A DNA stretch of 63,111 nucleotides, the filler included, from Hausera hauseri (lineage: Eukaryota): NCBI GenBank assembly GCA_046269625.1. It is 11 parts of 11 records of this genome, joined end to end, with 100 filler letters (N's around TTAATTAATTAA, not from the genome) between each part and the next. Parts side by side here need not be neighbours in the genome. Positions count along the whole stretch, not along the records: positions 58,984 to 63,111 come from JBJURY010743764.1; 10 more parts are not named here. One strand, written 5' to 3'. The translations under genes were made by a program, and so were the position numbers. The notes under the pieces were generated by a model. That model ran no database searches, had not been told where the DNA came from, and saw only the letters and a program-made list of their open reading frames with translations. This document shows positions 806 through 63,111 of the stretch, piece after piece; position 1 is the first letter of the stretch, and every line of letters starts with the position of its first letter.

Positions 806-2514
806 TGTGATAGTGATTGAGGCGTGATTGTGATAGTAAAAGCCAGCCGCCACGGTAAAACCCAGCCGCCACACTAATGAATAGAGTGAACCAGGAAGCA
901 CGTAAACTGAACGAAAAGTTGCGTAGCGCAATTTGTGCGACCACAAGTAAGATGGCGCATTCTGTTGGAGAAGCCGGAAAATTACGTTCTCGACAGGAAG
1001 GCAAGAAATCATGGAAAATTCGATACGAAACAGAATCTGATTGGTTGAAGTACATAGCCAGTGTTGTATAGCAACAACCGCAACACAATAACGTCATGAA
1101 CTAAGGAAAAACGTAACAGTTGGAAACAGCGGTTTCAATATAAGCAAGACAGCCTTGGTAACCGCAGCATTCGTTGAGCAGCATTGCTGAGAGTCATTCT
1201 GCAAGCATTCGTATCTTGGACTTCGTAGTGTAAGGAGCTACGGCTTGTTGAGCATCAATTCGATGGTCAGCCTTCATAGTGAACAGAAGGACATCTGTTA
1301 ATGGACTCCTGTAGTATGTAGAACTACGTGAAGCAGTTGGTTTGTAATCTTCGCGGTAGATAAAAGCATATCTGCCCATCGCTTGTACGTCGTTGGATCG
1401 AGCGTATCGTATAAATCGTTTGAAAGTCGTTTGAAGAAAATCGTTTGAAGCAAATCGTTTGAAGCAAATCGTTTGTATACCGTTTGAAGCAATCGTTTGA
1501 AGATTTATCGTCTTCGCAGAAGATGCTATGTGAACTGCGAGTTCCAGTTGCTTACTGTGAGTACTACGTTTAATTAATTGCATCGGCTGATCAAATGGCT
1601 GAAGCCACGCAGTAACGTGCACGTAATTCGTTCGTAATAATCTTCGTTGGTGTCAGCCAACTGAGCGCTCGCTAAATCGTTCAACGACAACGTTTAATTC
1701 GTTCAGCAACGATCTTTATATCGTTCGTGTGGTGAAGAGATAACCCTCTACGTTGGAGGAAAGCATCGTTCGTCAGCAGTGAAAGTGTCGCTGTCGAAGC
1801 TTTTGGCAGTTGAGTTGGAGATCAAGTGCCACCGGTGCCATTGGTGCACCATTCTTATGGTAATTGGTAAACTGTGAGTATCTTTGTACTGTCTGTAAAT
1901 GTTATATGAACGTGAACTAGCACTGAATCGCATTGTGTATGCACAGTATGGAGTTTATAGCTGTTGAACAGAACCTTGGGTACCCATTCAATTAAACACC
2001 CGGCATTTGCCATACGAATGGTTATGAATATATTTATGGAGAGACTAGTATTGTATATTGGAAGCTGAGATAAATTGACTCTTGAAAATTGTAACTTGTT
2101 TATGAGAACTGACTTTGAAATTGAGAAACGGACATTATTGTAACAGTCAGTAAGGTCATGGACACAGGAAGGAAGCGAATCTACAGGAAGGACATGGCGG
2201 CTGAGCTATTAAGGAATAAATAGTTAGTTAATTAGCATAGTTAGATAAGTGATTGCATGTACATTATTGACGATTCATGAGTTGGGTTATCAGTGACTAG
2301 AAAGAGTCACTAATTGAAAGTCTATGATGCAATAATTATTTACTTATGTGTATTATTATTATGATTTGTTCTTGTGTTGAGTTAATAAATGAATTGTTCA
2401 TTATACGATCAGAGTCATTACCTTAGGTGCGATTTATGTTGCTGAAGTTGCGCCGCTAATTGCGCGCCAAATTAGTATTGTGTTTTAAGGTTGAGTGTTG
2501 TATTGGCTATCACA
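806..2514 (+). repeat. 5' LTR, ~1.7 kb (start at 806 or 829)
   Basis: Starts TGTGATAG (at 806 and again at 829) and ends in the perfect inverted repeat CTATCACA (2507-2514); start region matches 12171-12317; AATAAA at ~2215 and ~2384. Confidence 0.8.
1412..1510 (+). repeat. Tandem array of ~13-14-bp units (AATCGTTTGAAG[C]A) inside the LTR
   Basis: About 7 consecutive (T)CGTTTG-containing units. Confidence 0.9.
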
Positions 2515-2535
2515 ACACCAACATTGTAATTTTAG

Positions 2536-2558
2536 TGGTGCCTTAAGACCAGGATTCG
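2536..2558 (+). promoter_or_regulatory. Primer-binding site, tRNA-His-like
   Basis: TGGTGCC-TTAA-GACCAGGATTCG compared with the complement of invertebrate tRNA-His 3' end, TGGTGCC-GT-GACCAGGATTCG (recalled sequence); lies ~21 nt after the inferred LTR end. Confidence 0.7.
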
Positions 2559-2846
2559 GTTAGACATCCAGTCAAGAGTGTCAAACTCAAACAGCTTTGT
2601 CAAGCATAGCCCTGAAGATAGCATTGTGCACCACAGCACTAACTACTGAATAAGAGCTTCAGCAAAAAGAAGTGACATAACCGCTCTCTTCTCTGAACGG
2701 TACAGCTGTGAGATAGTTAGTTGAAAAATAGTTGGTTGATCATCATCAATCAAGGGAAGAGAAGTGGTACAGCTTTATGATACTTTAAGAATTTAGTTAG
2801 TTGAAGTTAATGTAGACGTGTTGATCATCATCAATCGTGTCGGTCA

Positions 2847-4590
2847 GTGGCAAACTTTACTAAATCATCATCAATCTTAAACACTGACGACACCTACATT
2901 ACAGTTAAGACAATTGATTACGATAACTTTGTAATAGAGTTAAGAGATTGTATTGAGAATAAAATGGAATCTCCACCTTCTGCCATGGGAGAAAGAATTG
3001 TGGCAATACCACAGCAACAGTTGGATGCCATGATGGCAGAATACAGTGCAATGAAAGTTGCCTATGAAGAAACTAGAAAAATGCTAGAGAAAATACAAGC
3101 AGGAAGTCAGACCCCGATTAAAGAAGGGAAACCTTACAAGTCAGGTTTGGGTAGTAAAGACGATCCAGTTAGGAAAGCTTTAGATAAAATAGAGACTATG
3201 GTGACGAAGGTTGACATGAATAATCGACACCAAAACATCAGGACTTTCGTGCAGCCATTTAGCGGAAAAGAGACAAAAACCTTCAAGACGTGGATATCAC
3301 AGATCGAGAAGTACGCATACTTGGTTAAAGCCACTGAAGAAGAGAGAAAAGAAATGGCTTACATGACGTCTGATGGACTAGCGAACGATTTCATCCGACG
3401 AAGGTTCACATCGTGCCCAGATGAGACTTGGGAAGAGTTCAAGAAGACGTTAGCCAACAGATATGCCGAGGTTAGTGATGCGCACTACGCGGTGGCAGCG
3501 CTGAGAAAGATTAGACAAGAAAGGGAGGAAGCGGTCCAATTGTATGGTACCGGATGCCGAATATGGCGGAAGAGGCATACACCGGGCAAAATATCATGTC
3601 AGAGGAATGTGGTAATGCAGGTCATTTTGCGAGGGGCTGTCAAGCAAACACCATGAACGGTAAAGAAGAAGTTAGAGTTCCGAGACATCAGGGAAACGGG
3701 AGTCCTGCTGTGTAGAACGGCCCATGCAGAGCAGGAAAATAGTAAGGGCCCGCCCGAAAGGACAAAGGAAAACGTCATGTCAACGGAACGCTGAATATTA
3801 TAGACAAGAAAGGAACTTAAGAAAAATTAGACCAAATATCAAACCAATATGGAAGAAAGAAGATAAATATAGAACGAGAATCATGAGACGTAGACGTAGA
3901 GAACCGAACGAAGTGAACTGCAGAAGGGTGAGCCTGAGAAGAAATAATAAAAGGGAAATTATGAAAAGAAATTATCACGGAACATACTATGAAAGAAACG
4001 GTAGAAGTCACGATAATACGAGAAGATATGAAGTTATGGGAAGAAACTTTAATCCAAGAAAAAACAAAGTTTATCAAACGCCGGTTAAAAGGAGTAACGA
4101 TCGAGAATATACCAAGACTGAAAGCGAAGAAGTTGGGAAAGATAGGAAAACCGGAAATCATAGAAACTGGTTACGGACAAATCAACAGTGTGAGAAAGTT
4201 GAGCAGGAAATGAGAAGCGGAACAGTACAAAAATGCCGAGATGGGATAGGAAATAAGCGACAAAACGAACCGGAACCTATGGAGGTCGATGAAACTAGAC
4301 GCAAGATACAAGAGAAAACCCCAAAGCAAATCACACCCTGTCCCAAACACAAGAAGGTCGTTAACATCCACACCCCGAATCCCAAAAGAAGGCGTCCCTT
4401 TCCTGAACAGTCACGAGCGGCAAATACCCGAAACGTACACCATCAGAAACGAACGTCGCAACAGATTGAAAATAGAGATTATGGAAGTGGTAAAAGGCAA
4501 GGGAAACAGAGAAAAAAATACGAAATAAACTTCATAGAGGATCCAAGTTCCTACATCGTACACTTGGCAAAGTCAGAGTTAGATGCTTGA
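2847..4590 (+). pseudogene. gag: Gag, frameshifted (ORFs 2847-3656 and 3724-4590)
   Basis: Capsid-like FSGKETKTFKTWISQIEK...TWEEFKKTLANRY; out-of-frame CCHC knuckle C..ECGNAGHFARGC at ~3597-3640; PMEVD motif; basic NC-like region. Confidence 0.85.
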
Positions 4591-7500
4591 TAGATACTGG
4601 CGCACAAGTTAGTATACTTAGTGAAAGAGTGTACCGGATGTTAAAGATCAAAGGAAAATTGATAAAGCAAGATATTGATTTGAGATCAGTGTCCGGAAGA
4701 ACTTTGAAAGTTTTAGGAAAAACCACACTGGAATTTCATATCGGAGAAAAGACCATGAAACATAATTTTCTAATAGTGAGAAATATGTGTCGCAGTGCAA
4801 TAATAGGAAGAGATTTTCTTAGAAAACACAATGCACGGATTTATTTTGACTTAAAGAAAATAAGAGTAGAAGACCAATATGTGGATCTGGAGGATGATAT
4901 CCACATTGCATCCATCGTACGAGTGAGAAAAAAGATAACCATGAAGCCGAATTCCGTAAATATTGTATTGGCGTCATTGAAGAGAAACAGTTATTGGCAT
5001 GAAGGGGAAAACGTAGCAGTAACACCATTAGATGAGAAAGAAATAATAGAAGAGCCAGGATTGCAAACGGTGTGTGGAATTGTGAAATTAAACCCGAAAA
5101 GAGAAATACCGGTGATGATAGTCAATTATACGGGAAAGACGATAACATTACAAAAAGGATGCGTTGTAGCGAAAGTGGACAAAACCGACACATCGATATG
5201 TGAAGCTGTGAATATGACCGAGAAAAACAAGAAAGAAAAAATCCAAGAAAAGTTAAATAAATATTGGGAAGAGAAGTCGAGCAGAAGAGCACACCGAGAC
5301 AGAGTTTTGGCAGAAATACGAGAAGGATTATGGAGGCGGAAACGAGGACAGTTGGTAGCAGAAATCAGCCAAGATGACGAGAGAACCAAGAAGTTGTTAG
5401 AAACTTTAAAAGTAGATGAAAAACATAAAACCTGCATAGAGAACTTTGTGAGAAAACATGCAGATGTTTTCGCAATATCAGACATGGAACTGGGAAGAAC
5501 ACAAACAGTCACCATGAAAATTGAGACAGGAGACCACGCACCCATAAGTTTAAAGCCGTACAGAACACCCCTCGGAAATAGAGAAGTGGTAGAGAAAGCG
5601 GTGGAGGAGATGTTACGAGCGGGTATTATTGAACGTACCAGGTCGGAATGGTCCTTTCCTGTCGTAATTGTAACGAAAAAGGATGGCAGCCACCGATTCT
5701 GCGTAGATTATCGGGCATTGAACGCCATCACCAGCAACGTCAGCTACCCGATGCCGTTAATTGATGACATCTTGGGACTGCTAGACGGAACCACTTACTT
5801 TACGACACTGGACGCAAGGTCGGGCTTCTGGTGCATACCGATGTCCCCGGAGGCAAAGGCAAAAAGTGCGTTTTGTACACATACAGGCCTATATGCCTGG
5901 AATGTAATGCCATTTGGACTGAAGGGATCACCAGCGACATATATGTCTCTGATGAATATAGTACTAGAAGGAATGCAGGCATACGCCCTAGCGTACATTG
6001 ACGATATACTGATTTTTACAAAAAGTGACATAAAAGACCACTTAGAACATGTGGAAAGGGTATTTGACAGACTCAGAGAGCATAAAGTAAAATTAAAACT
6101 AAGCAAATGTGAGTTCCTAAAGGAGGAAACGAAGTACTTAGGTTTCGTGATCACTAGAGAAGGAGTGAAACCTGACAGTGAGAAAGTGGTAGCCATCAGG
6201 TCCATGGCAGCACCAAAAACTACCAAGGAAGTACGCGGATTCCTCGGCACTTGCGGGTATTATCGGAGGTTCATCCCGAATTTCTCCGTGATAGCTGAGC
6301 CATTGGTAGCATTAACAAGGAAATTTGCCAGATTCCGTTGGGATGAGCACTGTCAAAAGGCTTTTGAATATTTGAAAGAAAGTTTAACCGTGGTACCCTT
6401 ACTAATGTACCCGAACACGAATAAAGAATACGTGTTATATACGGACGCTTCAGAATTCGCAGTAGGAGCGGTACTAGCCCAGAAAGATGGTGAGGAAATA
6501 GTGCAAGGGAAAAAGGTTGATAAGGAAAAACCAATTTATTTCCTATCACACAGATTGACAAAATCACAACGAAAATGGGCTGTGACAGAGAAAGAAGCGT
6601 ACGCAATTCATTACGCCTTACAGAAATTGAATTTTTATCTGCACAACAGCAAGTTTACAATTAAGACCGACCATATGCCATTGAAGGCCATGATGAGAGC
6701 AGATGTGCAGAACAAACGAATCCAGCCGTGGATTTTGAACTTGCAAGGCTATAATATGAATATAGAATACATACCGGGTCCACAGAATACTATTGCAGAC
6801 TTACTGTCAAGATTGCCGGACAAAAGTAACAACTATGAAGAACCACAAGAAGAGAATATAGAAGAAGGAACACCGGAGATTGATGAACACACGCTCCAAA
6901 TTTCGGCAGTCAGTTCGACCGAAGCAAAAGTAGATAAAACGGAAAATTCAGTAACAAAACCAAGTGGGGAAGATGAAAATAGGATAAATATGAAAGTAGA
7001 ACAACTAAAAGATGTTGAGCTGCACATCATTATTGAAGATTTGAAATCAGGGGTAGAGGAAAAGTCAAAGAAGTGGAAGAAATTTATGTTGGATGACGAA
7101 GAATTATATCGAGTGGGTGGTGAAGAAAAACGAAATTTCCAATTGTGCATTCTGCAACATCTGAAGACGTGGGTAATTCAACAACACCATGACAAATTAG
7201 GACATATGGGTAGAGACAGAACTACAGAACTAATAAGTCGGAAATATTATTGGAAGAATATGTTACAGGAAATCGGAAATTACATCAAGAACTGCGAACC
7301 CTGCAAGTTAAGAAATATGGAGGTATTAAAACATCCGATTCAGGAACCAGATTACGCGAGATTCCCCATCGAAAAAATAAGTCTCGACCTTTCTGGACCA
7401 CACCCGTTAACAGCCTCAGGGAATAAGTACATCCTACATATAGTTGACATCTATAGCGGATGGCCAGAGCTGTATGCCGTACCGGATAAGACAGCGGAAA

Positions 7501-9035
7501 ATATTGTAGACATCTTGGTAGGCAAATTTATAACTCGATATGGATGTCCCAGAATGATTGTTACAGATAACGGCAGAGAATAAGTGAATCATATAATGAA
7601 AGAGACATTGAAAGAGTTAAACGTAAAGCACATAAGAACATCTGTGTATAACCCGGGTGCGAACGGAATCAACGAGAGGCAACACGTCACGCTGTACGAC
7701 ATTATCGCCAAATACACCCAAGACCAGCCAAAAGAGTGGGACCTGTATCTAGGACAAGCAGCCATGGTAGTACGAGTAATGGAAAATGGGAGTAGGAAAT
7801 ACTCGCCATACGAGATGTTATTTGGCAGAGAACCCATTCTTCCCGTCGACAATCTGCTACGACCTAGACTGAAATACCAGGGAGAAGAATTTCATCAGTA
7901 TCTAATCCAAAAATTACATGAAATTACTGTGAAAGTCAGCAGGAATTTGAGAGAAGCTTTTCAGAAGAGGAAAAAGTATAGTGAACCGAAAACGGTACAT
8001 CAAGAATTCGAGGTGGGAGATAAAGTATATTACCGTAAGAATAAGAAAAGCTCTAAGCTTGAAAATAATTGGATACCGGGATATAAGATACTAGAGAAGA
8101 AAGGACCAATAACCTACGTAGTGATCAACCAGCAGACGGGACATGAAACAACAACTACCACAAGTCAGCTCAGAAAAGACGACCGAATGTTCCCGGAAGA
8201 ACCTAAAGCAGAAAATAAGGGCAATATACGTAAATCAAGGTATGTAGTGCCACCAAACGAAGGAAGTGAATCAGAAACATCGACGGAAACGACCCAAAGT
8301 GAAGAAGACAAGTCAGAAGAAGAAAGCGAAAGCGATACTCGTTACGAAATAGCAATCCCATACCGAACTAGAAAGGAAACCGAACAGAAAGTAGATAAAG
8401 AAACTAATACGTCGGCACCGTATCAGAATACTAGAGCAGCAGCAAGAAAAAGATTTGAAGAAGCGCGTACACAACAGTTGAAAAGGAGACGAACCATGCG
8501 AAGTAATTCATCAGAAGAAAGTGACATACCAATATTAGAAAGAAAAAGACGCTTGGAAGATCGTGAGCGAAGGGAAGCACAAGAAGCTTATGGAGATGAT
8601 GAAGACACGCAAGAAGAAACACAAGACGAACCGGAAAATAGTGGTTCAGAGACTTTGGTGGAAGACACAGAAACGGAAACATCAGAATTAGACCAGATGG
8701 TGAGGAGATTAAAGAGGTTACATGATTCGGGCACATCAACGGAAGATGAACCCAGAGCCAAAGTCACTAGACAAGCAGCCCTTAGAAGAATGCATATGAA
8801 AAAGGCCGAAGAAATTAGGCGGAAACAGGAAAAGGAAAGAAGACAAACAGAAGCTCGTATAGAGGAAATACACAAGACAGTCGATAGAAAAGACAAAGAA
8901 GTTCAAGATATAAAGGAAACTATTGAAAAACTGGCCGATGGTAAAAGGAAAGCAGATATAGAAGTTAGCGAACTACAGGGCAAAGTAAGCGAAGCAGAAG
9001 CACATTCCGCCCAACTAGAAAAAGAAAACGCATAG
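4587..9035 (+). pseudogene. pol: Pol (protease-RT-RNase H-integrase) with one in-frame stop at 7581-7583 and a long acidic/coiled-coil C-terminal extension
   Basis: IDTGAQ and IIGRDFL (PR); RFCVDYRALN, MPFGL, YIDD (RT); TDAS, EKEAYA, TDH (RH); HH..GH..C..C and D..D(NGRE*)..E (IN); GP(I)TY motif; 7584-9035 continues in the same frame. Confidence 0.95.
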
Positions 9036-9338
9036 AAGACGGAGATCATAACGAAGCTCAGAAAGCAGTTGACAGAAATAGTCAGCCAAAAAGAGCCACC
9101 GTGCAATGTAATGAAGAGAAGTGTGAAACACAAGAAACAAAGAGAAGAAGAAGATATGGAAAACGAAGACGCAGAAGAACGTACGCATAGTAAAAGTCGA
9201 CCAAAAATAATAGCGGAAGTGGAAGATAAGCCACGGGGTAAAAGCCAACCCGAGCAAACGACCATAATAGACAAGGCAGAGGGTATGAATACTTTACATC
9301 TGGTTATGCAAACTATGTTGAAGTTAACACAATAGTAA

Positions 9339-11341
9339 TTGTGTGGATATATAATTCCACAGAGAACAATGAATACACATCAGTTGATGGTCACAATCCT
9401 TACAAGCTGGATAGTTGTCGGTTTGACACAAGCTAGGAAAGAGATTTTCCAATATGAAGGTATGGTGTTTGTAAAAATCAAAGATGTACACCAAATAAAA
9501 GCCCATTGGAAGTTGGTAATAACACAATCGCTGAAGAACTTCCAAGAACAAGTAATCGATGTAGAGGAGAAACTAGAAAATGCCAGCAGACTGCTACATG
9601 CAAGAGCATATATAAGCAATAAGAATCAAAAGACGAATGATGCCACATATTTTCAAAGGATGATATTAGAGTCAGAAAGAGAAGTGAAACAATGGAAAAA
9701 TGAAGTTAGGGGCATAAACGAAAGACTGATTTGGCTTAATAGAGGTAGAACCAAGCGAGCCATCTTACCGTTCGTGGGAGAGCTCTTAGATACGCTCTTT
9801 GGTACAGCAAAGGAAGATGAATTGCAAACTATCAGACAAAGCGTCCATATAATAAATGGTAACATTGAGGTTATGAAACATGTGATGGAACGTAGTATTT
9901 CGGCAATAAATATATCCCATCGAGAAATAGCGGAAAATAGAAGGAAAATTAATGAATACACCACGCATATATCTAGAATTGAAAAGTACCTAACAGAAAT
10001 GGAGAATAATGTAGAAAATGTAACGAAAGAACTTGAAACCAAAATAAATGAGTTAGGAATGCTAATGTCAATTGAAGGCAGATGTAGAGAGTTGGTAAGA
10101 CGAACCGGAAGAGTTGCTAATAACATTGAAGATATTCTAAGCCTAACTACCTTGAAGAGACTAAACGTGAATGCTATAAACCCGACAGAATTGAAAGTGA
10201 TCTTAGAAAGTATCCAGAGGAATATACCACGCAATTTACGAATGCCGATTAACTTAGAGGAACATCTAATTGACTACTACGAACAACTAGAAACGGAAAC
10301 ATATATCAACAGAGGTCAATTGATACTGATAATGAACATCCCATTGGTAGATATCACCGAAGAATATGAGTTGTATGAGGTTACGAGTATTGGAAAAGTG
10401 AACGGTAATGACGGAAATGAACAGAGTGAATTGTGGGAAAACTACTATGTCAGAAACATCCCAGAAGGCAAGGCACTATTAATTAATAAAGCGAACACCA
10501 TGTTCACAATACTACCGCAGGAAGAGTTCAGCAAATGTAGTGAAACGAACACCGAGTACTGTGAAATAACGAGACCAATGTATAATACCAAGCAAACAGA
10601 ATCATGTGTACTGAATACATATGAAAGCAACGGAGAAAGAGTTGAGAAATATTGTCGAAAAGATTTAGTTAGGAGAATGCAAACACCGCAAGCGACGAAG
10701 ATAGGCAAAGATATATGGATGATAATTACAAAGACAGAGTTGAAAGCTCAAAAGTTATGTGAGCGTGATGGGAAACGGAATACTGAAACAATACATCTAA
10801 AGAGGAAGTTAGAATTACTTCAGTTGGAAAAGGGATGCTCTCTATACTCAAGCGAAATAGTTATCAATGAGCCGCAGATGTTTGACTCGACAGTAAATGT
10901 AGCGACACCAAAGATGAATACTTTGAATATCAACATGAACGGGCAACAATGGAAAAACACAGACACAGAAACAGTGGTAAAGAAGATGGAGCTTGTATTT
11001 GGAAACCTCTAACACACTTAAAAGCAATGGAGAAAATAGATTACAACGACATGCTTAATGAACTAGAGCAATTTCAAGCCATCAAGGAAGTAGATGAGAG
11101 AAACACCACGACGACCATTAGTGGCATCATTATTGTAGCAGTAATCCTATTATGTGGAGTTGTTGTAGGGCTTAATAAAAAGTTTAATTGCTGGAAGAGA
11201 ATTGAGGAACTCTATCAGAAACACAAGGAAACCCAGAAGTTAGATCAAGCAGAAAAAGGACAGTCCCCAACCAAAGACGTCAGAATAGAATATCGGGATA
11301 TTAAGTCAATATACCCAAATCTGACTATACAAAAGGTGTAA
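9339..11341 (+). pseudogene. env: Envelope fusion glycoprotein, baculovirus F / errantivirus Env type, with one frameshift near 11000
   Basis: Signal peptide; furin site RTKR then fusion peptide AILPFVGELLDTLFGTA; heptad repeats; Cys pattern; TM helix ISGIIIVAVILLCGVVVGL in ORF 10949-11341. Confidence 0.9.
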
Positions 11342-12160
11342 AAGATTATGAAGGGTAAGACATAGGCCAAACTGTAATATAAGGGGTCGAAATAAAGATG
11401 ATATACTTTCTCTTGATAGGAAAGGGTATATACTGCTTAGCGACGGAAGAAAAATAATTTTTCATTCGCTGTAACGAATGACAAATAATTTTTAATGGGA
11501 TGAGGGGCGTATAGTAAGGGAACGCTCACCCAGAGAATTTCTCCGGGAGACCTAGAATTTTGTTTCGGGAAATAAGATTTTCCTTGCAAATGTACTAAAG
11601 TTGGGACTGGGGGACGTAACATCAAACCCAAACCCGCGAATGTGTAGTGTGAATGGAAGTGTGAATGGGTCTACTGTGGGTAAGTAAAGCGATTAAAAGA
11701 GCCCACAGATTGGTGATGTCCATCAAGTGGATGTCCATGAAGGACGAGTGAGACGGATGCATGAGAAAGGGAAATGCGCAAGGAATAAAGGGGACAGGTA
11801 GCGTTACTGTTAATATTTATAGGAGTCAATGTGGTGGATATAATACTTATGAAAGTATTGGGTGTGGTTGATGAAAACCACCATATTTACATTAATTATG
11901 TCGTATTGATTGAGAAATGATGATATATGTAAATAATGTAGTTAGAAATCGAAATTTTGAAGTTCTTGAATTATTAATGATGAAATGTGATTAACATTCT
12001 GTTAATAGTTGAGTTTTTATATTTGCTGATTAATTACAATGAATATGTGATGTCGTCATTTTCGAGTAGACTAAATGGTACTTGAAACAAGGTTGAAAGG
12101 ATGAAAGGCAGTAATCAGAAAAAATTCTTATCTGCTTGAGTGTAGATAATAATATTTTTT

Positions 12161-12317
12161 AAAGGGGTAAGAGGCGTGATTGTGATAGTAAAAGCCAGCC
12201 GCCACACTAAAAACCCAGCCGCCACACTAATAAATAGAGTGAACCAGGAAGCACGCATATTGAACGAAAAGTTGAGTAGCGCAATTTGTGCGACCACAAG
12301 TAAAATGACGCATTCCG
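12161..12317 (+). repeat. Polypurine tract and start of the 3' LTR
   Basis: AAAGGGGTAAGAGG precedes TGTGATAG (12181); ~92% identical to 829-965. Confidence 0.85.
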
Positions 12318-26037: not shown

Positions 26038-28599
26038 CAAAGAAATCACAGCGGTTTTGTAATAACACTGTTTATTTGTATCTAGTATCTAAGTCAGTTT
26101 TTCTCTACCGACTTTGCATATTCACGCCTTCATCTTACAGTCCTACCATCTTCCTTTTATATCTTTTTGGTTGTTTCCACGTTGCACCTTTCAGCATCAT
26201 GGTTGAAATGTGTGTCTTGATTGACATTCTAATGTTATTAAAGATTTCTTTCACTTCCTGTGCCCATCTGTGCCATTCTCTGTAGAATTTCGGTAGAAAT
26301 CACGATGTGGTGTCTGATTTCTATGCAACCTCACCAAATGGCCAAACCATTACATTCAAATTTAAGTATATTCCATACTTCGTTTTACACCTACTTCTGG
26401 CCAAACACCACTAAGTTTCAAAACAACCACAAGCACTAGGAACCGTCGGTAATCAGACTGCTATTCACCCAGAAGTTGACAAAACTTATGCTTGCTCAAA
26501 TTATCGATGGCCATCAAACTCAATTGGCTCTAGAAAATCACTATCATTGCTAAACGAGATGACAACTGTGACTGACATTCTTCCGGAAGATTGTCAGGCC
26601 AATGATTACGGCAGCTTGAAGACTAGTGAATTTTGTAAAACATCCATGGACGATAATATAAAACCAAAGAACGACCCAGCAGAAACAGTTTTTACGAATG
26701 GATTTTCTGATTTATTAGAGAAATTATTTCCTGATGACTCAGTCGACAATTCTTATGATTCAGGTGAAGTTCAGACATTACCGAATCCTTTGGCATATGG
26801 TAATCACTGGCCACATCCATTGATCACGCCAGTTACCGAGACTCTGGATCAGCATTCTGATTCACAAGATCTCAAAATATTGCTAGAATTTTAGTAAAGA
26901 AGCCATGCATATTGAATAAATTAAAGTTTACTACCGCTTCCAGGTTTTCAACCGTGACACACACACAATACATAACAGGGGGAATTACATGTAGGATTGA
27001 AATTTATTGGTAATACAAATAAAAGAAAACGATAATGTGTGTCTTTCACTCCGTGTGTTTTTCTGTGCCGTTCTCGCGATTTCTTCTTAAATAATGGCTA
27101 TAGAAATCGCGGTGTGATTTCTGTGCAACGTCACCAAATGGCTAAACCATTACATTCAAATTTCAGTAAATGTTGTCGCATCCTTCNNNNNNNNNNNNNN
27201 NNNNNNNNNNNNNNNNNNNNNNNNNNNNNNTTAATTAATTAANNNNNNNNNNNNNNNNNNNNNNNNNNNNNNNNNNNNNNNNNNNNCCTAAAACTATTAC
27301 AATTCAATTTATTGAATTATTCTTCTCTAGTTAAATATCCATTTTTCTGATAGTTATCAAGTTATAAGCTAGTCATTCCCTCACACTTTACAGATACTTT
27401 TCGCCAGAATAATATAAAACAAACATTTATTGACATTTCAAATTTCCATATATACGAGTCCATTCGGGCCGATTAATTAATGCTCCCGTTGATTCAATTC
27501 AAATGTTATCATTTACAGTTTAAAAATTTTAATAAACAAAAATAATATAGAAAATAATATAAATCAATGGTGACGACAGCAAAACGAAGTCAATCTGCTT
27601 ACCAATTTCATTTTCATTATTATTATTTCTCAGCGAATTTGTAGCGTCCATTTTCAATTTTTATGAAAGTATAGTAAATCGGATCAAAATTCTTGAACTG
27701 AAAATTGTATTTGGAGAAGACGTAATACCGTATTTCACAGCAACCGTTTATCAATTATTCTAGCATTAATACATTAACATTTATGAATTCAACAACTCGT
27801 TACTCTTTACGAGTTGGATCCTCTAATAGCCAATATAAAATTCACTGTTTAAGAGCGTTATTAATTGTTGTTCTGTTGTGAATTACACGGAGTTTATATA
27901 CTGTTCTGGAAAGATATATTTTTAGAATTTTCATTACTGTATCGTTTCATTCCATTTTTGGAAATAGTCATCCAATTTTCAAAATCATGTGTCATCTAAG
28001 TCTTGTCATTTCTTATTTTTAGAAATTGAATCATCTTAATGTTTCAATTCTCAGAATTATGAATTATTTCATCTAGTATTGGATTTTCAAAAGTGTATAT
28101 TGTTTTATTTGTCAATTCATTTTATTCGTCTAGGTGGCCGTCACCAAAATTTGGATACATTAATTTTACAGATAACAGTGTGATAAAAATGCCCATCATG
28201 TGGGGCTTAACAAGATGAAAATAAAATAAAGGAAATGAAAGGAAAATTAATGATGATGTTTAATGAAATGTACATGAGTATCATACAAAGATTTATGTCA
28301 CATGAAATGTACTTCAAAAATGTTCAGTACAAAACAAGATGAAAATGAAATAAAGTAAATGAAAGGAAATGAAATGTACTTAAAAATATTCAATACAAAA
28401 GTTTATGACACTTCTTTTTAGTCTTCTAAGTGACACTTGTTTTTGGTCTTCTAAGGTATAGTAATCTTCTAACAGACACTTGTTTTGGTCTTCTAAGGTA
28501 TCGTAACAATTGCACATGTACAATACATAACCCTGAGAATTGCCATAATACAATTAGGATCTATTATGGCCACAAATTCAATCGAATCCTTTATTATAT

Positions 28600-31365
28600 T
28601 TGCCCTGTGATGGTGAATACATGCAGTTCTATGAGGATCATAAGGATTATCTGACCGACTTTGCATCAAAATCCAAGAAGATCATATTTAATGAGCATAT
28701 GCCAGTTGCACAGTCCACAGTACAGTTTGCAGCACAGTCCGCAGTGCAGTACGCAGTACAGTCCGTAGTACAGTCCGCAGTGCAGTCCACAGGAATAAAA
28801 TGCCCATCAGGTCCATCAGATGCCTCAGGCTCAACAGGTGTAGCGGCTCCATCAAAAAGCCAAAGACAGCGGCCAGTTGATGCTGCTGCATTAAAGAATA
28901 AAGTCCGCAAATATGTCATTGATGCAGCTGGGCAAAGAACCATCAAGGAGTTCCTGGAATATGCAAAGGAAGAAACAGAGGGGATCCTCCAGGACAATAT
29001 GACTGAGCTCAAGGCCCTTAAGGTTAATATGAAACTTGAGGCCACATACGTCAATGTCGATGCTGAAGAATCAAATAGGGCCTTCAAGACCAAAAATAGG
29101 CCCATATTGGAAAACACAAATATAGCTGATTGGCTGCATGAAGAGCATACAAAGCTGATCCGTAAAACCGATGACAGGCAGGATAAGAAGAGTGGATGGA
29201 CTCGGGCAAACATAAAGAGACTGCTTGTGTATGTGTACAAATACTCTCCCATGCGAGGCAGTTCATATATACAGCTACCGGACTGGATCGCTAATAAAAA
29301 AGCATATGTCAATGCTCTTAATAATGACAACATGTGCTTTATTTATGCCATTCTATCAAAACTTGTAACGGATGTAAACCATGCTTACCGTGTTTCACTA
29401 TATAAGGATGTGCAGAACAACTACAACTTTCAGTTTATCACATTCCCTCCATCCATAGATGAAATCAAGAAGTTCAGCTGCATCAACAAGATATCCATCA
29501 ATATCTTTGAATTGGATGAAGAGAACAAATTCTACCCATTGCAAATATGTGATGCTGAATTGGAAGATCACAGCGATCTGCTCTTACTAGATGATGGTGA
29601 TAAGAAACATTATGTTTGGATAAAGAATTTTGAGCGTTTAGTCAGATCCAAAATAACAAATCATGAACACGAAATCGAAATATGCAAAAGATGCTTATCG
29701 CATTTAAGCGGTAAGTTAGCTGTGGAGAAGCTGAATGAGCATATGATGTATTGTAAAAACAATTATTGTGCAAGGTTAGAATTTCCCGAAGAGGACTATA
29801 TCGAATTTAAGGAATTTGAGAAGATCAAGGCCTCAATTATCATCTATTGCGACTTTGAGATTATTCTCAGACCAGTCCATACATGCAGTCCCAGTCCTCA
29901 ACACAGCAGTACAGCGGCATACCAATACCACGAACTATCATCGTATTGTATGTATGCCAAAGGATTGAACAGTGAACGATATCTATTCAGGGGTCCAGGT
30001 GCAGCAGCACATTTCATGAAGAGACATGAAGACATGGCTCATAAGCTTAAAAAAATGCTGCAAAAACATAAGGACGACATGAGCATGTCTTGGATGCAAG
30101 AACAAGAATGGCGCACGGCAACATCATGCTACTTGTGCGATAAGTCCTTCACCAAGGAAAATTGGAAAGTTAAAGATCACTGCCATTTCATAGGTGCATA
30201 TCGGGGCGCAGCATGTAAGAACTGCAATCTACGATGCAAAACATGCACATATGTGTCTGTAATATTTCACAATCTCAGCGGCTATGACAGCCACTTCTTA
30301 GTCCGAGAATTAGGCAACATTGATGGTAATATAGAAGTGATCTCCAGCAGTGAGGAGAAATATATCACTTTCACTAAGCATGTTGGTAAAATCCGATTTC
30401 GCTTCATCGATAGTTTTCGGTTCATGTCGTCTTCACTGGACAGTTTAGTGAAGACCCTGCCTGCCGAATAACTCAAGGAAACGAAGCGATTATATCCGGA
30501 TACCTTTGAACTAGTTAAAACGAAATGAGTGTTTCCCTATGATTAGATAACATTATGGGAAACACTGGATGAGTCCTCATTACCGCCCAAGGATGGTTTT
30601 TACAGCCATTTATCGGACTGCTATATCAATGATGAGGACTATCAGTATGCTCAAAACGTCTGGCGGGCATTCCAATGCAGATCACTAGGGGAATATAGTG
30701 ATATATATCTTAAAACCGATGTACTACTGCTGACAGATGTCTTTGAAAATCCAGCTCGTTTCTTCATGACTCCAGGGATGAGCTGGGCAGCAATGCTGCG
30801 CTATACCGGTATCAGTCTGCAAATCATTAAGGATTACGACAAGATCCTTATGATCGAAAGAGGCATTAGAGGGGGAATATGCCGAGCCATTCACTCGAAT
30901 ATAGCGAGGCCAACAACAAGTATATGGCTGAATACGACTCAGCAAAGAATTAGTCATATATTTCTTACCTGGATGCCAACAACTTGTATGGATGGGCAAT
31001 GAGCGCCCCATTCCCATACGATAATTTTAAGTGGGTTGAGCATCCTGGAGACATTCCTATCATGGACCTGGATCCTGCTGGAGATATGGCTACATAATGT
31101 TGATGGATTTGGAATATCCGACTTCCATCCACACAAGGCATCAACAGCTGCCTTTCCTCCCTGAAAGCAGGCCACCGCCCCGTGGAAAGCAGAGAAAGCT
31201 GCCCTTCCATTTGGGTAATAGGGAGAGGTATGTAGTTCACTACGTTAATCTCCAGCAAGCAGTTAAACATGGACTCCGCATTACAAAAATCCACAGAGCC
31301 CTCCAATTCAGCCAGTCCATGTGGTTGCAGTCCTACATTGATCTAAACACCAAGTTGCGGACAAA
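28600..31365 (+). pseudogene. Polinton/adintovirus protein-primed DNA polymerase B, disrupted after 30471 and truncated by the contig end
   Basis: GSSYIQLP; DNMCFIYA; YCDFE (ExoI); VKDHCH..YRGAAC..CNL; FHNLSGYDSH (ExoII); FIDSFRFM; ERGIRGG; YLDANNLYGWAMS. Confidence 0.95.
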
Positions 31366-44029: not shown

Positions 44030-45398
44030 ATGGACAAATTAGAAGTACAACATTTGATGCAGCAACCAGAATACAATGCTGAGAATAACGAAAAGTAAAT
44101 TTTTTCATTTATTTATTTTATTATTTATTTCTTAAAGAACTTATAGACGTAACTTCCATATACTAACAGAGAACGATATTCCTCTCTTCCCCGAAAACGC
44201 TTTTGACAATGATGTTTTGGAATCATTACAAAGCAAATTTCGAGAACAAATCAATACACTAGCCATGCCACCGAGAGTGGCAACTTTCCGCCATTTCATG
44301 CTCGTCCATAAAATAGATGACGACTTCAATGGTAGATATTACGCAGAATCACGATATCTACCATTGTATTACAAATATCATTGGTTCATACGCATCCAGG
44401 AAGAAATTTCAAAAGGTGGAAATAAACACTTACACGTGTTAATTTACACACCCCAACCTTACAGATTAAAATCTATGTGGAATATTTTGGGGTCTTACAT
44501 TCTCCCTTTCAGATGCGATGTCCAAAAAGTATATTTTACTATTATCATTAATATTATTATTAATATATAGGTTTATTTATACCATTACAAGCCGACTTTT
44601 GAGGGCGCAACTGTAGCTCAATTCGGTGTACCGCCTTTCAACGTTTTGCGGGATAATACCAGTCGCAAAGCGGTTTACCGCATGTTTGACGAGGCAAAAA
44701 CAGCCTCCGAAGCCCTCGAGGTAATGAAGGACGGCGATAGAGCCGAATACGTTACAAAAAACAAATTATTGTGCAACTACGTTCGTAATAAATTCAGAGA
44801 ACGTTTCGTTCCCAAGAAAGAATTTCAATTCTTAATAGAACCCATCAATTTCCGACCCGACAAAGGCATTAACAGCGCAATCATTTTCGGCGCTTCGAAC
44901 ATTGGTAAAACATCTTTTGCTCTGAGTCACGGAAATAATCCACTGATCCTTCATTCTCTTCATGATTGCCCGGTAGATTGGACGGGCGAATACGATCTTA
45001 TAATACTCGATGACGTGGGCTTCCACGATGCGCCACCCGATATTTTCCTCTCAATCATCCAATGCAACCACGTTAATGACAACAGAAGCATACGTGGGTT
45101 GTACAAAAGCGTCATCATTCCGTCCACAGTTCCGCTAATCATGACTTACAACAGCGAAAACACATTCTGGCCTTACAAAATGGACCAGTTACAAAAAGAA
45201 GCTTGTATAAAACGGCTAAGGATATATCAATGCGGAACTACTATGTTATATAAATCAGAACAGCCCAGAAACAATTTCGTAGTGGAAAATACAGTCAACG
45301 TTGGAGATGAAATTGCTAAGAAAAGGGTGAAAATAACTTTGTGCCGCAATCCAGACACACAAGATTGGCAAGCAGGCAATCCAGGCACCAGCCAATGA
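44030..45398 (+). CDS. rep: CRESS-DNA-virus-type Rep (HUH endonuclease + SF3 helicase), ~424 aa; exons 44030-44094, 44147-44528 and 44571-45398
   Basis: Two phase-compatible GT-AG introns; motif I-like RHFMLV, motif II EEISKGGNKHLHVLI, motif III YHYK..QFG; Walker A GASNIGKT, Walker B IILDD, motif C IMTYN. Confidence 0.9.
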
Positions 45399-53944: not shown

Positions 53945-54237
53945 TTAGCATTCGCATATAGACGTCGGACAGTTTCCCATTGCGCAGTTCTGTCTGCACC
54001 AGTCATGAAAACCAGGTCTGTATGCATTAGCCTGGTTAGCTCTACAACCTGGTGGCCTTGCAGTGATTAAGGATGGTTTGGCAGTATCAGTGGTTACTGA
54101 CTTGTCAGGCACCACATTCTGCAGGCTGACAGAAGAGCCGGCAGCAACTATTTTAATGTCAGCACAACCGTAAAATTCTTCTTGGAGACCGCAGCTTACG
54201 CATGAGCTGCCATCTGGATCAGAGCCCCATTTATCTC
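53945..54237 (-). CDS. Last exon of an AA15-type lytic polysaccharide monooxygenase with a Cys-rich C-terminal domain
   Basis: ttttcag acceptor; GDKWGSDPDGSSCVSCGLQEEFYGCADIKI..CRA..DWCRQNCAMGNCPTSICEC*. Confidence 0.8.
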
Positions 54238-54319
54238 CTGAAAAAGGAAAACAAACAAAATTAGAAAAGTGTTAAGGTCTGTATTGAATGCAAATAACAT
54301 AGCTGCGATAGCTAATTGC

Positions 54320-54610
54320 TATCATCAGCATCATCATCAGGTGTCGTACTGCGAAGCGTAGGCCGTCTTGGATCTCCATTCCTCACGATACCTGGTGTCC
54401 CCAATCATCTCTTCTGTTGACCTTCTTCCAGGCCATCTTGCAAACAATCCAGACACTTCATTCTTTGCCGTCCACTACTTCTATTTCCTGATAATTTACC
54501 CGTGGTGACCAAGCTCTCCAGACCTTGTCGTCTTAAAATATGGCCAATCATAGATGTTTGTCTCTTTCTGATCTTACTTGTAAGCGTTCGTTATTAACAG
54601 CAATATTGTA
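54320..54610 (-). mobile_element. RTE-like LINE 3' end with (GAT)n tail; the same tail occurs at 50644-50692 (+); other RTE remnants at ~52440-53010
   Basis: GKL.GNRSSGRQRMKCLD; shared tail ACG.CCTACGCTTC.CAG...CACCTGATGATGATG. Confidence 0.65.
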
Positions 54611-54748
54611 TGCATTTGATAATATACTGTCTTTTTCGATTTGTTGTCNNNNNNNNNNNNNNNNNNNNNNNNNNNNNNNNNNNNNNNNNNNNTTAATTAA
54701 TTAANNNNNNNNNNNNNNNNNNNNNNNNNNNNNNNNNNNNNNNNNNNN

Positions 54749-55850
54749 TGCCATCTGCTGTTGTTGAATTACTCAATTCGTTGGCCATATTTTCTCCATA
54801 TTTATGTGGTTCAAAAGGAAATTGAAGTGAAAAATATTTAAACATCTCCATAAGGTTAGGACGACTTCTATCTAACTTGCTGATAAATCGGCCAAAATCG
54901 ATTTTTTGTATACTCTTATTCATCTGTTTCTGAACGTCTTTTACGTCAGCTGAAATAGCTTTAACGATATTCGAATATCTGAAACAACTCCGCTTATTAA
55001 TGATCATTTTACAACGAGGGCATCTTTTCTGAACGAATTTGCCGTCACCTGGCACCAACTCCATGTAATGATCCATTGAAGTAACTTCAAAACTGTGACC
55101 ACACGTCCATAACGTAATAAACCTGGCGTTTTCTTCTTTTTCCGTACCAAAATATGTTTTTTATTTCCGGGTCGCATTTCAAGTAAATTAACCGGCAAGG
55201 CTCCCCGCAAAGTCCGTAACATTTAAATCGTTTATTACGCCGACCACAATTGACCATTTTATTGCAAGATTAGTCACAATATCCTCTATCGCACAATTCA
55301 TAACACACTTTCGTACACTTAAGATGCTTACATTTCCAACGACATTTTTCCTGACATGGAACACATTCATCACCACAAATTTTGGGACGCCTGTTATGAA
55401 AACATCCTTCTTCGCATTTTTCCGAACACGGTGGGCAATGTTGAGAGCATTTTGCTTTGCATTCGTGTCCAGAGATAAATTAAGCTTCACAATTATTTCC
55501 ACAAGTTTTATGAGTTCGACCGTTAAAGCACTCTGCACATGTTCCAGAGCATTCGTGTTCAAAGTCTAGTATGGCTTTACATAGACGTTTGCAAGTAACC
55601 TTTCGCAAATGACAGTAATAGTCATCCACGTGACCGCTTTTTGACTTTTTCCATACAATCACCGCACTTCTCTTTACAGAGTTTTACACAACCATGACCA
55701 CATTGTAACGTGCGTTGGGGTTTTAGAACAGGCAACAAGCTGTGTGTGACCACAAATTGGTATAATGTTACTAATTGAAATTATACATTCATTACATGGC
55801 ATGTAGCACTTTAAACTGCAGCGATGACAATTCAGACAAAGTTTCGTATA
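54749..55850 (-). pseudogene. ZNFX1: ZNFX1-like NF-X1 zinc-finger region, frameshifted
   Basis: Repeated CGH.C..C units; RYGRVVTVLKLLQW / MDHYM..KRCPRCK..RYSNIVK. Confidence 0.75.
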
Positions 55851-58883: not shown

Positions 58884-59609
58884 NNNNNNNNNNNNNNNNN
58901 NNNNNNNNNNNNNNNNNNNNNNNNNNNTTAATTAATTAANNNNNNNNNNNNNNNNNNNNNNNNNNNNNNNNNNNNNNNNNNNNATTATTTGCACAGTTGC
59001 ATGAAGAAATTGACTATGCATGCCGAACGAATGATTAAGAGGTCTAAATATAAATTTAAAACTGGCGTGTTGATTCAATCCGATGACTTCAAAAGACAAG
59101 TTGCTGGCTTGATGCTAGATTTCCAGATAAATGGTTCGTTGACATCCGTTGTTCTGCCAGCAGAAGCTCCGATTAAAATTCCTAATTATAAGGTTCAAAC
59201 TCTTGAACAAGAAATACTCAAAAGTTTCAATCTATCCAAAATTGAACAGCTGCTGTCGAAAGAAATCGCATCACTGGACAAGGATTTGGACTTAAAATTT
59301 TCTGGACCAAACCACCGTATTGATTCTATGGACATCCCGCGAGTCAACATCAACCTCACCGATCGACCGACGGACATTCAACCATCAGAGGTATCTAAAC
59401 ACAGGTGGGTGAGATTTCTTTTATTGATTCGCGCCCACTAGTGTTACCGCTCTCTGCGCATGTTCAGACCCTTCCTGGCTCAAACCATTTTTCATTTTAA
59501 ATGGTTTCTAAACTTAACTTCTTTTTTTATCCCAATTATCTTTTGTCACCGCTATCCCGGCTGTACGCTCGAACCGCTTCTTAATCCAAAAGGTAACCGC
59601 TCAGGCCAC

Positions 59610-62424
59610 ACGTGCATTTCATCGTTCCCTTGGGAGGAGCTCATTACAATCTTCTTTTCTGATCTTTAGTTACCATCAACACATCAAAACCTTACAAGCT
59701 CCACTCAACGAGACAGCACAGGTCTTATATGACGCTTTGTCTTCATCACAGCACTTTTGATTTTTATTTAACATATAAAGGGCTTATAGTACATTCTTCA
59801 GACTCCCTCTTGCCTTTCGTACGCCACGAACGTTCATACACCTGTATCATGATCCATTTTCGCTTACGGGGTGGATCGGACCCCGATCCTTCTTATGTGG
59901 AAAACCCCACAAAGACCAGATCTGGTCGTCGTCCTGTCGACACCACACCAACAACATCTCCAAATCTCCCCTGCACGGATTTTTTCTACACAAGACGAAT
60001 TCTAGTCGTACCTGGTTGCCGTTCTACTTGCAATGGCTTAAAGCCAATCATATTACAGACTCCTTTTTGCGGGAGAACAGTTTGCTGCTATTACTTCCAG
60101 CTAACATCAAGCAGAAAATCAACAATCTTGCTGATATACTTACTTCTTCAAGTCCATATGATATGCTGTATGAATCAGTTCTGCATATCACCGACTCTTC
60201 CATTGACAGCATAATTCAGAAATACTTTAATGAGCATGTCATCGGAAATCAAAAACCATTGGACTACCTGAAAACCGCAATCTCTTAATTGAGCTCTTTA
60301 GGCGTGACTCCTATAAACAATGCCGATTTTCTTCGTCGATATTTTCTTTCATCTTTGCCTACCTCCATCAGGGCGCTGCTCACTGTATTAGATGACTCTA
60401 CTGCCCTTGAAAAGCTCGCCTTATTGGCAGACAAAAATTTTGATATTTTGCAGTCTAATAGTTCACAGCCAGTAGCTGCAGCGACCTCTCATACACCGTC
60501 ACATACAGATAACGCTTTATTTGCACAATAACTGCACATAATGCAGATGCAGTTCGACACACTCCAACAAGAAATTTCTGCGATCACAGCCTAACTCAGT
60601 GAATTATCCGTGCCTCGAGGAAGCGAAAATCGTATTTCACGCAATCGCAGTTTTCCAGGCACTCTTTTCGTTCGAAATCTACAGATGGTAAAATGACGTG
60701 TTTCTATCACAATAAATTCCGCACAAACGCAAGGAAATGTGTTTTAGACTGTCGATTATACGATGAACAATATGCAGTAGACAATCCAATCTGCATCTAT
60801 CACACAAAGTATCAGTCCATGGCTAGGTTGTGCATACTAGGATGCAAATATTATAAAAGAAATTCTAATTTCTCTTCATCTTCTTCGCCTCCTCGTACTC
60901 ATCATTCTTTTTTTCCTCAACAAGTTTCAAAAAAACAATAATGCCATCATATGCCACGGCACATTCTGGTACAGGCAATATCATTTAATCTTCTGGCCGT
61001 TTCAACACCGCCTCTGCAGACTTTCTGTTGAAAGCTGAAATGTTATTTGCAGATACATCACAAATAGATTTCCTTATCGATTCAGGAGCTGATTTTTCAC
61101 TTCTTCCTTTGTCTTTCGCTCCTACATCTAATACAATTTTCTCACCTGCACTCTTCATTGCCTGTGGTCAACCTTTGAACATTGTAGGTACCAAAAAATC
61201 GACTTTCACATTCTCCAACCTACCAAGGAAATTCACCTGGGAATTCCATATAGCCAACATCAGATCGCCCATAATAGGCTCCGATTTCTTGGCTGCATAC
61301 GATTTGTTAGTCGACTGCAAGCATAAATGCATCCTGCGCAGAACCTTTGTTGAAAATTCTAAAAAATACCAAACGACCAATCAGACACTTTGTCTTCCTC
61401 AGATCATTCAAATGTCCATTTGACATCCTGTTCATTGGCTGATAACAACACTTAACAATTCATCAATATTTTTAATCTCATCAAGGGGAACAAATCAATC
61501 TTGAAACTATCGGCTGAACCGAATGTTGTTAATAAATTATTCAGTCATTCTACATCAATTACAGCCACTGACTCTTTCAATAATATGCCCTCATCATTCT
61601 TCTCGTTGGGTTTTTACCTTAAATCCTACATTAAAACTTCTTGTTTTCGTACTCTTAAGAAGGACATAAATTTCAAGCCGCATTCTACAACATATCACCA
61701 CATAGTCACCAAACACCAAAGACCTATCAGACAAAAAGTAAGGTCACTTTCACCTCGCAGTCGAAAAGCTGTTAAATCAGAGTTCAATGAACTCAAAAAG
61801 GCGGGCATTAATTGACGATCCAAATCACCATGAGTTTCGCCTTTGCAGGTTGTGACGAAGAAAGATGGCACATACAGACCATGCGGTGATTATCGTCAGT
61901 TAAATAATCTAACAGTCCTGGATGCTTACCCTTTACCTCTCATAAATGACATCCTGCACAGCCTTACCAACACTAATGCGTACTCCACAATTGACTTGCA
62001 TAAAGCATATAATCAAATTCCTGTTGCACCTGATAATATACCAAAAACTGCTATCATTACTCCATGTGGCCTCTACAAATATATCTTTATGCCATTTGGT
62101 TTACGTAGTGCTTCTCAAACTTTCCAACGGCACACTGATACCGTATTTTCATGCCTCCACTTCGCTCATCCATATATTGATGACATATTAGTTGCCTCTA
62201 CGTCCGTCAAACAACATCAAGAACACCTTCGTATCATTTTTCACAGATTACATCATAGCAATTTGCAAGTTAACTTCTCCAAGTGTCATTTCTTTCAAAA
62301 TCGTGTTAATTTCCTAGGTCATGTCATCACTTTTCACGGCCACTCTCCACAACCGGATCGACTACAACAATTAAAGAACATAACTCTACCAACGACTACC
62401 ACGGATATGAAAAGTTTCTTATAA
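59610..62424 (+). mobile_element. Decayed Ty3/Gypsy element: Ubl-like domain, Gag with two CxYH..C..C fingers, protease, RT; truncated at the start of RNase H
   Basis: HFRLRGG; PYDMLY; CFYHNKFRTNARKC and CIYHTKYQSMARLC; FLIDSGAD, IIGSDFL; YRPCGDYRQLN, MPFGL, YIDD. Confidence 0.88.
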
Positions 62425-62434
62425 ACACTCCACT

Positions 62435-62683
62435 TCATCCACAAATACGTACCACATTGCTCTTTATTTTAACGACGGTCAGCGGATGATTCGGATGACA
62501 CGTTAATTCGGTAAAACCAGCCAAATCTGCAATTTCATTGAAAGACAAATTGATTTTCACCAACTGCCTGATTTGATTCGATGATAAATTAAGAGTTCTC
62601 AATGATTCGAGAGATTCTAAACCACTAATTTTTGTAAGAAATAACACAAGGTAATTGTGACAGTTATTCATACACTCAATCAT
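62435..62683 (-). pseudogene. SDS22-like LRR fragment (LRRCC1-like) abutting the truncated pol
   Basis: LTKISGLESLESLRTLNLSSNQI..INLSFNEIADLAGF. Confidence 0.6.
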
Positions 62684-62809
62684 TTAAAATATCGAGAAGT
62701 CATCTTGGTTTTAATAATTCTGGTCGAAATACAAGGGATTCTCTGGCTGAGGGACCGAGCGTGCCATCTCCGTTGCGTCATGTCCCCTTTCTTTTTTCAT
62801 CTTTAATAA

Positions 62810-63111
62810 TAAATATGTACACACATTAAGGGTTACGCACAAACAAACAGCTCATTCTTTATACTGAATTGTCCTTTTTTTGGCTCCCCCAATTTTTATT
62901 TTATGCACAACGGTCTAACTTTGCAACCTTACGACTCTTTCATCCTTTGTACCCGAGAAATATTCTATCACTCTCACTGCCCATTTTCGCATCCGTGGTG
63001 GATCAGACCTTGACCCTTCTGTGGAAAATTTAACAAAAACCAGGTCTAGTCGTCGTCCTGTCGACCTCACACCATCAACATCTCCAAACCGTCCCTGTAC
63101 AGACTTTTTCC
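62810..63111 (+). mobile_element. 5' part of a second, diverged copy of the Ubl-Gag element
   Basis: 62980-63111 aligns with 59853-59990; FYFMHNGL..DS..HFRIRGGSDLDPS. Confidence 0.85.

Follow-up and report, generated by a model that had tools for sequence, protein, structure and literature searches.

Several described systems place a protein behind ubiquitin or a ubiquitin-like domain (Ubl) that ends in diglycine. In the cytopathogenic pestiviruses (BVDV Osloss, CP1 and CP Rit), captured ubiquitin is fused in frame ahead of a viral protein, and host ubiquitin C-terminal hydrolases generate the N-terminus of that protein; ubiquitin that has lost its first three residues and stands behind foreign sequence is still a processing signal (PMC8310069). 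FUBI-eS30 and the ubiquitin-ribosomal protein fusions also carry an N-terminal Ubl ending in GG, and the Ubl of FUBI is both diverged and removed by deubiquitinases (DUBs) (PMC8354635, PMC10611586). Among retrotransposons, the giant planarian Gypsy elements Burro/GYPSM1 have a ubiquitin-fold domain (PF11976) in their first ORF (PMC6431247), and this internal SUMO-like domain is the nearest case described. The CsRn1 clade (CsRn1, PwRn1, AgCR and Boudicca) shares other features with the elements considered here, namely a DUF7041-related capsid, a CX2HX9CX3C knuckle, the order protease-reverse transcriptase, and an overlap of Gag and Pol at which a −1 frameshift is likely (PMC2582038). Our literature search returned no report of a GG-ended Ubl before a retrotransposon Gag; Repbase Reports and subscription journals lay outside it, and a brief prior note there is possible.

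Here we describe two decayed copies of a Ty3/Gypsy element in a window of 63,111 nucleotides, which is the whole stretch of Hausera hauseri DNA that was analysed, made up of contigs strung together with N spacers and with both copies in the last contig (58984-63111). As judged from sequence, the Ubl-led Gag is real and lineage-wide. We consider it fairly probable that this is a Ty3/Gypsy lineage with its Gag fused behind a ubiquitin-derived, GG-ended domain, likely cut by DUBs, which would give Gag a defined N-terminus wherever translation had begun upstream.

Results

The last contig holds a decayed Gypsy element (copy 1), a leucine-rich-repeat fragment on the opposite strand and the start of a second element (copy 2), both elements being on the plus strand. 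The N-terminal half of the copy 1 Ubl (59650..59757) matches the Ubl N-terminal half of the relative P0003 and of copy 2; its frame runs into a stop at 59758-59760 and has no in-frame ATG from 59518 on. The C-terminal half with the RLRGG end (59762..59875) is in a different frame (profile E 5e-6; 0 of 2000 shuffles score as high against P0003). A linker from the GG to the capsid (59876..59990) was traced by tblastn with P0003, P0004 and P0153, and a further frame break near 59980-60000 separates it from the DUF7041-related capsid region (59980..60651), which is 57% identical to P0003, has relatives that match PF23055, and is broken by stops at 60286, 60529 and 60592. The C-terminal region of Gag (60621..60941) carries two CX2HX9CX3C (CHCC) knuckles, both between 60699 and 60845, and before the Gag stop stands the heptamer AAAAAAC (60930-60936), which has the same position in 7 of 7 intact Gag ORFs of relatives and is likely a −1 frameshift site. 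An aspartic protease (61058..61297; DSG at 61079-61087; Pfam RVP E 0.005, below the cut-off) and a reverse transcriptase (RT; 61834..62463; Pfam RVT_1 E 2e-30) follow. Copy 1 is truncated near 62463, without RNase H, integrase or 3′ LTR, and contigs from one sequencing run diverge from the window sequence at 62463. The 5851 contigs of this run that match part of the stretch are a sign of a repeated family, not of expression, and no RNA data set was listed as containing the stretch. The naming of the family as Ty3/Gypsy in the first-pass annotation agrees with the Gag, protease and RT that precede the truncation and with the closest Pol relatives, P0189 and P0190 (77-78% RT identity), which carry the RT, RNase H and integrase families.

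Between the copies lies a leucine-rich-repeat coding fragment (62435..62683, minus strand; Pfam LRR_4 E 6e-7) that is likely host-derived. The Ubl leader of copy 2, with its RIRGG end (62784..63002; placed by profile match and frame comparison with relatives), is split by frame breaks into three pieces, at about 62784-62864, 62888-62935 and 62961-63002; its linker (63003..63111) is cut by the window end, and its capsid lies beyond that end. Neither an LTR nor a primer-binding site turned up at either window copy or in the window's own subclade. Both copies are broken remnants that probably make nothing, and because both are broken the case rests on intact relatives.

Other parts of the window hold further mobile or virus-like sequence. 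Another Gypsy element (819-12315) has terminal repeats that are 93% identical, a long Pol ORF (4494-7583) and a 557-aa ORF (9339-11012) that by eye is envelope-fusion-protein-like. By eye, too, a 637-aa ORF (28558-30471) is like a Polinton-like protein-primed DNA polymerase region, and a 275-aa ORF with Walker A/B-like motifs (44571-45398) resembles a Rep helicase of the kind that small circular DNA viruses encode. On the minus strand, coding pieces at 53945-55569 appear to resemble the C-terminus of a chitin-active monooxygenase and a zinc-finger region of ZNFX1 type.

The ubiquitin-like ends of the two window copies lie where the first-pass annotation had placed them, with the GG of RLRGG ending at 59875 and that of RIRGG at 63002; the codon changes are those it described (CGG/CGT and TTA/ATC), SD(P/L)DP follows each GG, and the residue after the diglycine is thus not Pro in either copy. 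Taken as a whole, the region is identical between the copies in 251 of 446 columns, less than the 82% identity of the two post-GG linkers. Because the copies are homologous, their agreement over RGG is weak evidence by itself. The N-terminal peptides quoted earlier did not survive the frame comparison: that of copy 1, VHFIVPLGGAHYNLLF, runs into a stop and belongs to a wrong frame, 434 of 2000 shuffles scoring as high against a relative, and that of copy 2 had been assembled from two different frames. The frame 59650-59757 of copy 1 is matched by 7 of 2000 shuffles against P0003 and by 0 of 1000 against copy 2. A reading of the copy 1 leader as one frame through a stop at 59660 was ruled out by the frame test.

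A continuous frame from the Ubl into Gag is lacking in copy 1 itself, where the RGG frame is not the capsid frame, and is seen in the intact relatives, where Ubl, GG and Gag form a single ORF rather than one that opens after the RGG. Such a single-ORF Ubl-GG-Gag is found in P0003 and P0153, 57% identical to the window Gag, and P0003 is the closest relative of the window. The match of the window leaders was tested against chance with a leader profile made from 26 relatives, the window excluded. When all six frames of the entire window were scanned with it, the two window leaders were the only matches under E 0.01 (5e-6 and 6e-5). When the two closest relatives were removed from the profile, copy 1 gave E 3e-5 and copy 2 gave 0.045, against 0.064 for the best background match, so that the profile signal of copy 2 without these relatives is marginal. 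The window's own leader pieces gave no match in Pfam, PF00240 included, and no PDB sequence match, and a leader query in the ESM Atlas gave no usable match.

HMMER, run exhaustively with the window Gag, returned 319 proteins, and the 150 best listed were analysed. Among the matches listed, the sequence ahead of the capsid is 40 residues or longer in 48 Gag relatives; 26 of these 48 have, in the same ORF, an upstream domain that ends in GG, and 22 have none. Of the 26 bearers, 25 fall in the Gag clade of the window (SH-aLRT 98), and the other 22 relatives score at background. Leave-one-out leader scores of the bearers lie between 7.3 and 43 bits, with 10 bits or more in 23 of 26, and none of the 124 listed matches outside the training set scores above 4.5 bits with this profile. 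In a quick Gag tree of 75 rows, from which 20 canonical rows had been dropped beforehand, one branch of 37 rows (support 98) holds the window and 30 of the 31 Ubl rows; its other 7 rows have no upstream sequence or start at a nearby Met. Six clade members (P0009, P0014, P0045, P0069, P0070 and P0106) show no Ubl in the protein and have their start Met within 35 residues of the capsid, as judged from protein calls. PF00240 matched 7 of 30 scanned proteins, one of them (P0075) above the Pfam cut-off. Of 30 proteins looked up, 29 have metagenome-type sources and one, which lacks the Ubl, is from NCBI, and none has an informative name. A word-indexed protein search found none with the Gag, and with the family alignment it found only two of its own input proteins; no relatives were found among viral contigs. 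In the ESM Atlas, P0007 matched DUF7041 clusters at 0.85, and weak rows with ubiquitin structure, under the bar, are leads only.

Some relatives have unusual sequence ahead of Gag. P0042, placed outside the main clade among canonical Gags, has a canonical-type Gag and a Ubl ending in RLRGG directly before Met, which marks a possible independent capture of ubiquitin or possibly a gene-calling chimera. P0100, also with a canonical-type Gag, has ahead of it an in-frame motif that we take to be 2A-like and ribosome-skipping, possibly another way to set the Gag N-terminus. The gene calls of P0003, P0016, P0027 and P0039 are fused to host pieces (Rrp44/CNOT1, 5′-nucleotidase, histone H2A and SCC3), and coding-like pieces precede both window copies (58986-59330; 62435-62683); these may reflect gene-calling chimerism or insertion near genes. 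Judging from such host-like pieces and from the taxa in which the ESM Atlas places the Gag family, the host is likely an invertebrate animal.

At the DNA level, an RT-based scan of 34 of the 64 parts of the DNA collection left 79 loci, which represent sister subclades (RT 48-54% identical) from few assemblies rather than the window's own subclade. A Ubl is present in none of the 49 loci with canonical Gag and in 9 of the 11 with the window Gag type (7 by profile; L014 and the start of L002 by eye), the remaining two having no upstream DNA; L006 and L007 are one element. In an RT tree that held no named CsRn1 reference and whose root is unsure, a branch with support 97 splits the Ubl-bearing from the canonical elements. 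A tRNA-Trp primer-binding site was found at 43 of the 79 loci overall and at 0 of the 11 with the window Gag type, 8 of which have a different primer-binding-like site, TGGTGTCAGAAG, presumably for tRNA-Leu. L002, L005, L007, L008 and L020 have a polypurine tract followed by TG, with the primer-binding-like site further on. Terminal or tandem direct repeats at a spacing of about 5.0-5.5 kb in L007, L008, L009 and L020 are likely collapsed assemblies of multicopy elements.

The frame upstream of the Ubl is open in most relatives with DNA there: from the primer-binding site to the Ubl, 5 of 7 elements are stop-free in the Ubl frame for 66-133 codons of AT-rich DNA. Among shuffles that preserve base composition only, 0-19 of 5000 are as open, and the other frames hold 4-13 stops. 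Three of the five stop-free leaders have no in-frame ATG. The leader is closed in L009 (5 stops) and L005 (4 stops).

AlphaFold models, built on family alignments, were examined for the relatives P0007 and P0003 rather than for the broken leaders of the window, and the leader is predicted in both to form the beta-beta-alpha-beta-beta-beta beta-grasp of ubiquitin, the fold by which the first-pass annotation had proposed to check its reading. In the P0007 model the beta-grasp spans residues 16-90 and aligns over 75 residues with ubiquitin at Z 10.4, the rmsd being 2.5; with ISG15 it aligns at Z 11.0, and the capsid aligns with that of MLV at Z 9.2. The P0003 model has the same topology, and its best Foldseek matches are ISG15, SUMO and ubiquitin, none of them at E 0.001 or below (best 1.7e-3). 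The linker is a low-confidence coil in both.

Near-canonical ubiquitin leaders are found at L008:2015-2242, at L005:4500-4727 and at the end of L002, and those of the other relatives are eroded; the Gag of L008 carries an in-frame stop. The L008 leader is identical to ubiquitin at 46 of 76 positions (about 61%, by hand count on the alignment), both it and the L005 leader match ubiquitin chains at E of about 1e-25 to 1e-27 (L005 at 1e-27), and the family profile that includes L008 matches single ubiquitin chains at about 1e-11. Both have Ile instead of Met at position 1. Because two relatives carry near-canonical ubiquitin, the source of the Ubl is ubiquitin itself, and on these comparisons the fusion and its origin in ubiquitin are well supported. 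With the near-canonical Ubl of L008, most leaders share only 14-34% identity. L005 and L006 have close RTs, Gags that are 71% identical and leaders that are 16% identical, whereas the Gags of L006 and L020 are 57% identical and their leaders 41%. The mismatch points to exchange or recapture of the Ubl module, the alternative being fast, uneven drift. A value of 40% for the L005 and L006 leaders, from pairwise alignment with free end gaps, is an artefact, the 16% being that of the multiple alignment.

The tail of the Ubl is kept across 32 members, which are related and were partly chosen by their GG, so that the counts are not independent. GG is present in 32 of 32, the Leu73 position is Leu or Ile in 30 and the Arg72 position Arg or Lys in 26. 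The residue directly after GG is never Pro (0/32, against 45/480 in the next 15 positions) and is Gly, Ala, Ser, Thr, Val or Met, presumably the stabilising N-end class, in 26 of 32, against 180/480; it is Met in 4 of 32. In the fold core, the equivalents of Leu43, Gly47, Tyr59 and Leu67 are conserved, and most of the surface has drifted: Thr, Ser or Cys mostly occupies the Ile44 position, so that the Ile44 patch is lost, Lys48 is kept in 9 of 27, and the median pairwise Ubl identity is 18%.

Discussion

By analogy with the pestiviruses, the best reading of the Ubl is that it would act as a processing signal that frees Gag from a variable upstream peptide. Translation would begin ahead of the Ubl, with an AUG of the leader or of the LTR, or else a non-AUG codon, as its start, and a leader peptide of variable extent would stand ahead of the Ubl. 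A host ubiquitin C-terminal hydrolase would cut after the GG, leader and Ubl would be discarded, and Gag would begin with a mostly stabilising residue and then assemble; a −1 frameshift at AAAAAAC would yield Gag-Pol. Cleavage by a DUB after the GG is likely on the conservation of the tail, and the positions kept are those that USP enzymes grip, these DUBs anchoring the ubiquitin tail by Leu71, Arg72 and Leu73 (PMC10611586), a pattern that fits cleavage. Two points count against it: FUBI, which is 36% identical to ubiquitin, is described as escaping processing by most DUBs (PMC10611586), and the identity of most leaders of this family to the L008 Ubl is only 14-34%.

If the Ubl is cut off, its main job might still be to aid the co-translational folding or expression of Gag, as proposed for ubiquitin-ribosomal protein fusions, with the open leader incidental. 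The kept fold core under a drifting surface, the Met after GG in four members, as in a Gag start fused behind ubiquitin, and the example of FUBI-eS30 as a diverged, cleaved fusion (PMC8354635) speak for such a role, but it leaves unexplained the stop-free leaders of 66-133 codons and the missing in-frame ATG in three of five, and sits poorly with the Ile, not Met, that opens the near-canonical Ubls of L005 and L008; we consider it unlikely as the main function. The released Ubl could also work as a decoy modifier, its GG activated by E1 and the domain conjugated to host proteins or jamming DUBs, which would blunt anti-retrotransposon pathways. Ubiquitin-pathway domains do occur in other transposons (PMC9741609, PMC6431247), and the invariant GG, the Arg or Lys at position 72 in 26 of 32 and the near-canonical ubiquitin of some relatives are what a modifier would have. 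A decoy is nevertheless the less likely reading, given the loss of the Ile44 patch; Lys48 is mostly lost as well, no shared binding surface is apparent at a median identity of 18%, and a long leader peptide would often remain on the Ubl, all of which makes this role distinctly unlikely in our judgement.

An integral Ubl domain needs no GG. The GG of this family is invariant although the binding patch is lost, and Pro, present at 45 of 480 positions just downstream, is absent after it, which weighs against an uncut Ubl that would belong to Gag and bind ubiquitin receptors, proteasome shuttles or ESCRT; even granting that sequences so far from ubiquitin may escape most DUBs and that a SUMO-like domain is present internally in Burro elements (PMC6431247), we hold this to be very unlikely. 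That the element's own aspartic protease cuts near the site, with the GG as a flexible relic, strikes us as scarcely credible: the element does encode a protease and the linker is predicted to be disordered, but the positions kept are the USP anchors Leu71, Arg72 and Leu73 (PMC10611586).

Beyond the processing of Gag by DUBs, we put forward tentatively, and with rather less than even confidence, that an old animal LTR lineage has handed the N-terminus of its Gag to host DUBs and so allows drifting or non-AUG starts, that it renews the module by recapturing host ubiquitin mRNA, and that the P0042 lineage is convergent with it. If DUB processing is true, a retrotransposon structural protein would depend on a host deubiquitinase for its maturation, which would offer the host a control point, and what in pestiviruses is a one-off accident would here have become a stable, lineage-wide strategy. 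The family also supplies ubiquitin variants that range naturally from about 60% down to about 20% identity while their tail stays the same, and these could be used to ask how little ubiquitin a DUB needs and whether Gag needs a fixed AUG.

The known systems differ from the present lineage in several ways. In Burro, the ubiquitin-fold domain lies inside the ORF, after a typical N-terminal Gag and among MATH, BIR and BCL2 domains, and no part in GG processing is ascribed to it (PMC6431247). Unlike the CsRn1 clade, the present lineage has a Ubl-GG leader, a long open leader, two knuckles and an apparently separate RT branch; its capsid starts with FFL[DG]xxxSPxxW rather than LPxFWxxxPxxWF, and its relatives have the primer site TGGTGTCAGAAG where that clade has tRNA-Trp (PMC2582038). 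FUBI-eS30 and the ubiquitin-ribosomal protein fusions are host housekeeping genes with their own Met start, and FUBI, closer to ubiquitin at 36% identity, depends on specific DUBs, USP36 and USP16 (PMC8354635, PMC10611586). The pestivirus insertions are recent, near-identical to ubiquitin and confined to single RNA virus strains (PMC8310069), whereas the module described here extends across a lineage, has mostly worn down to about 20% identity and stands before Gag, with its cleavage a prediction.
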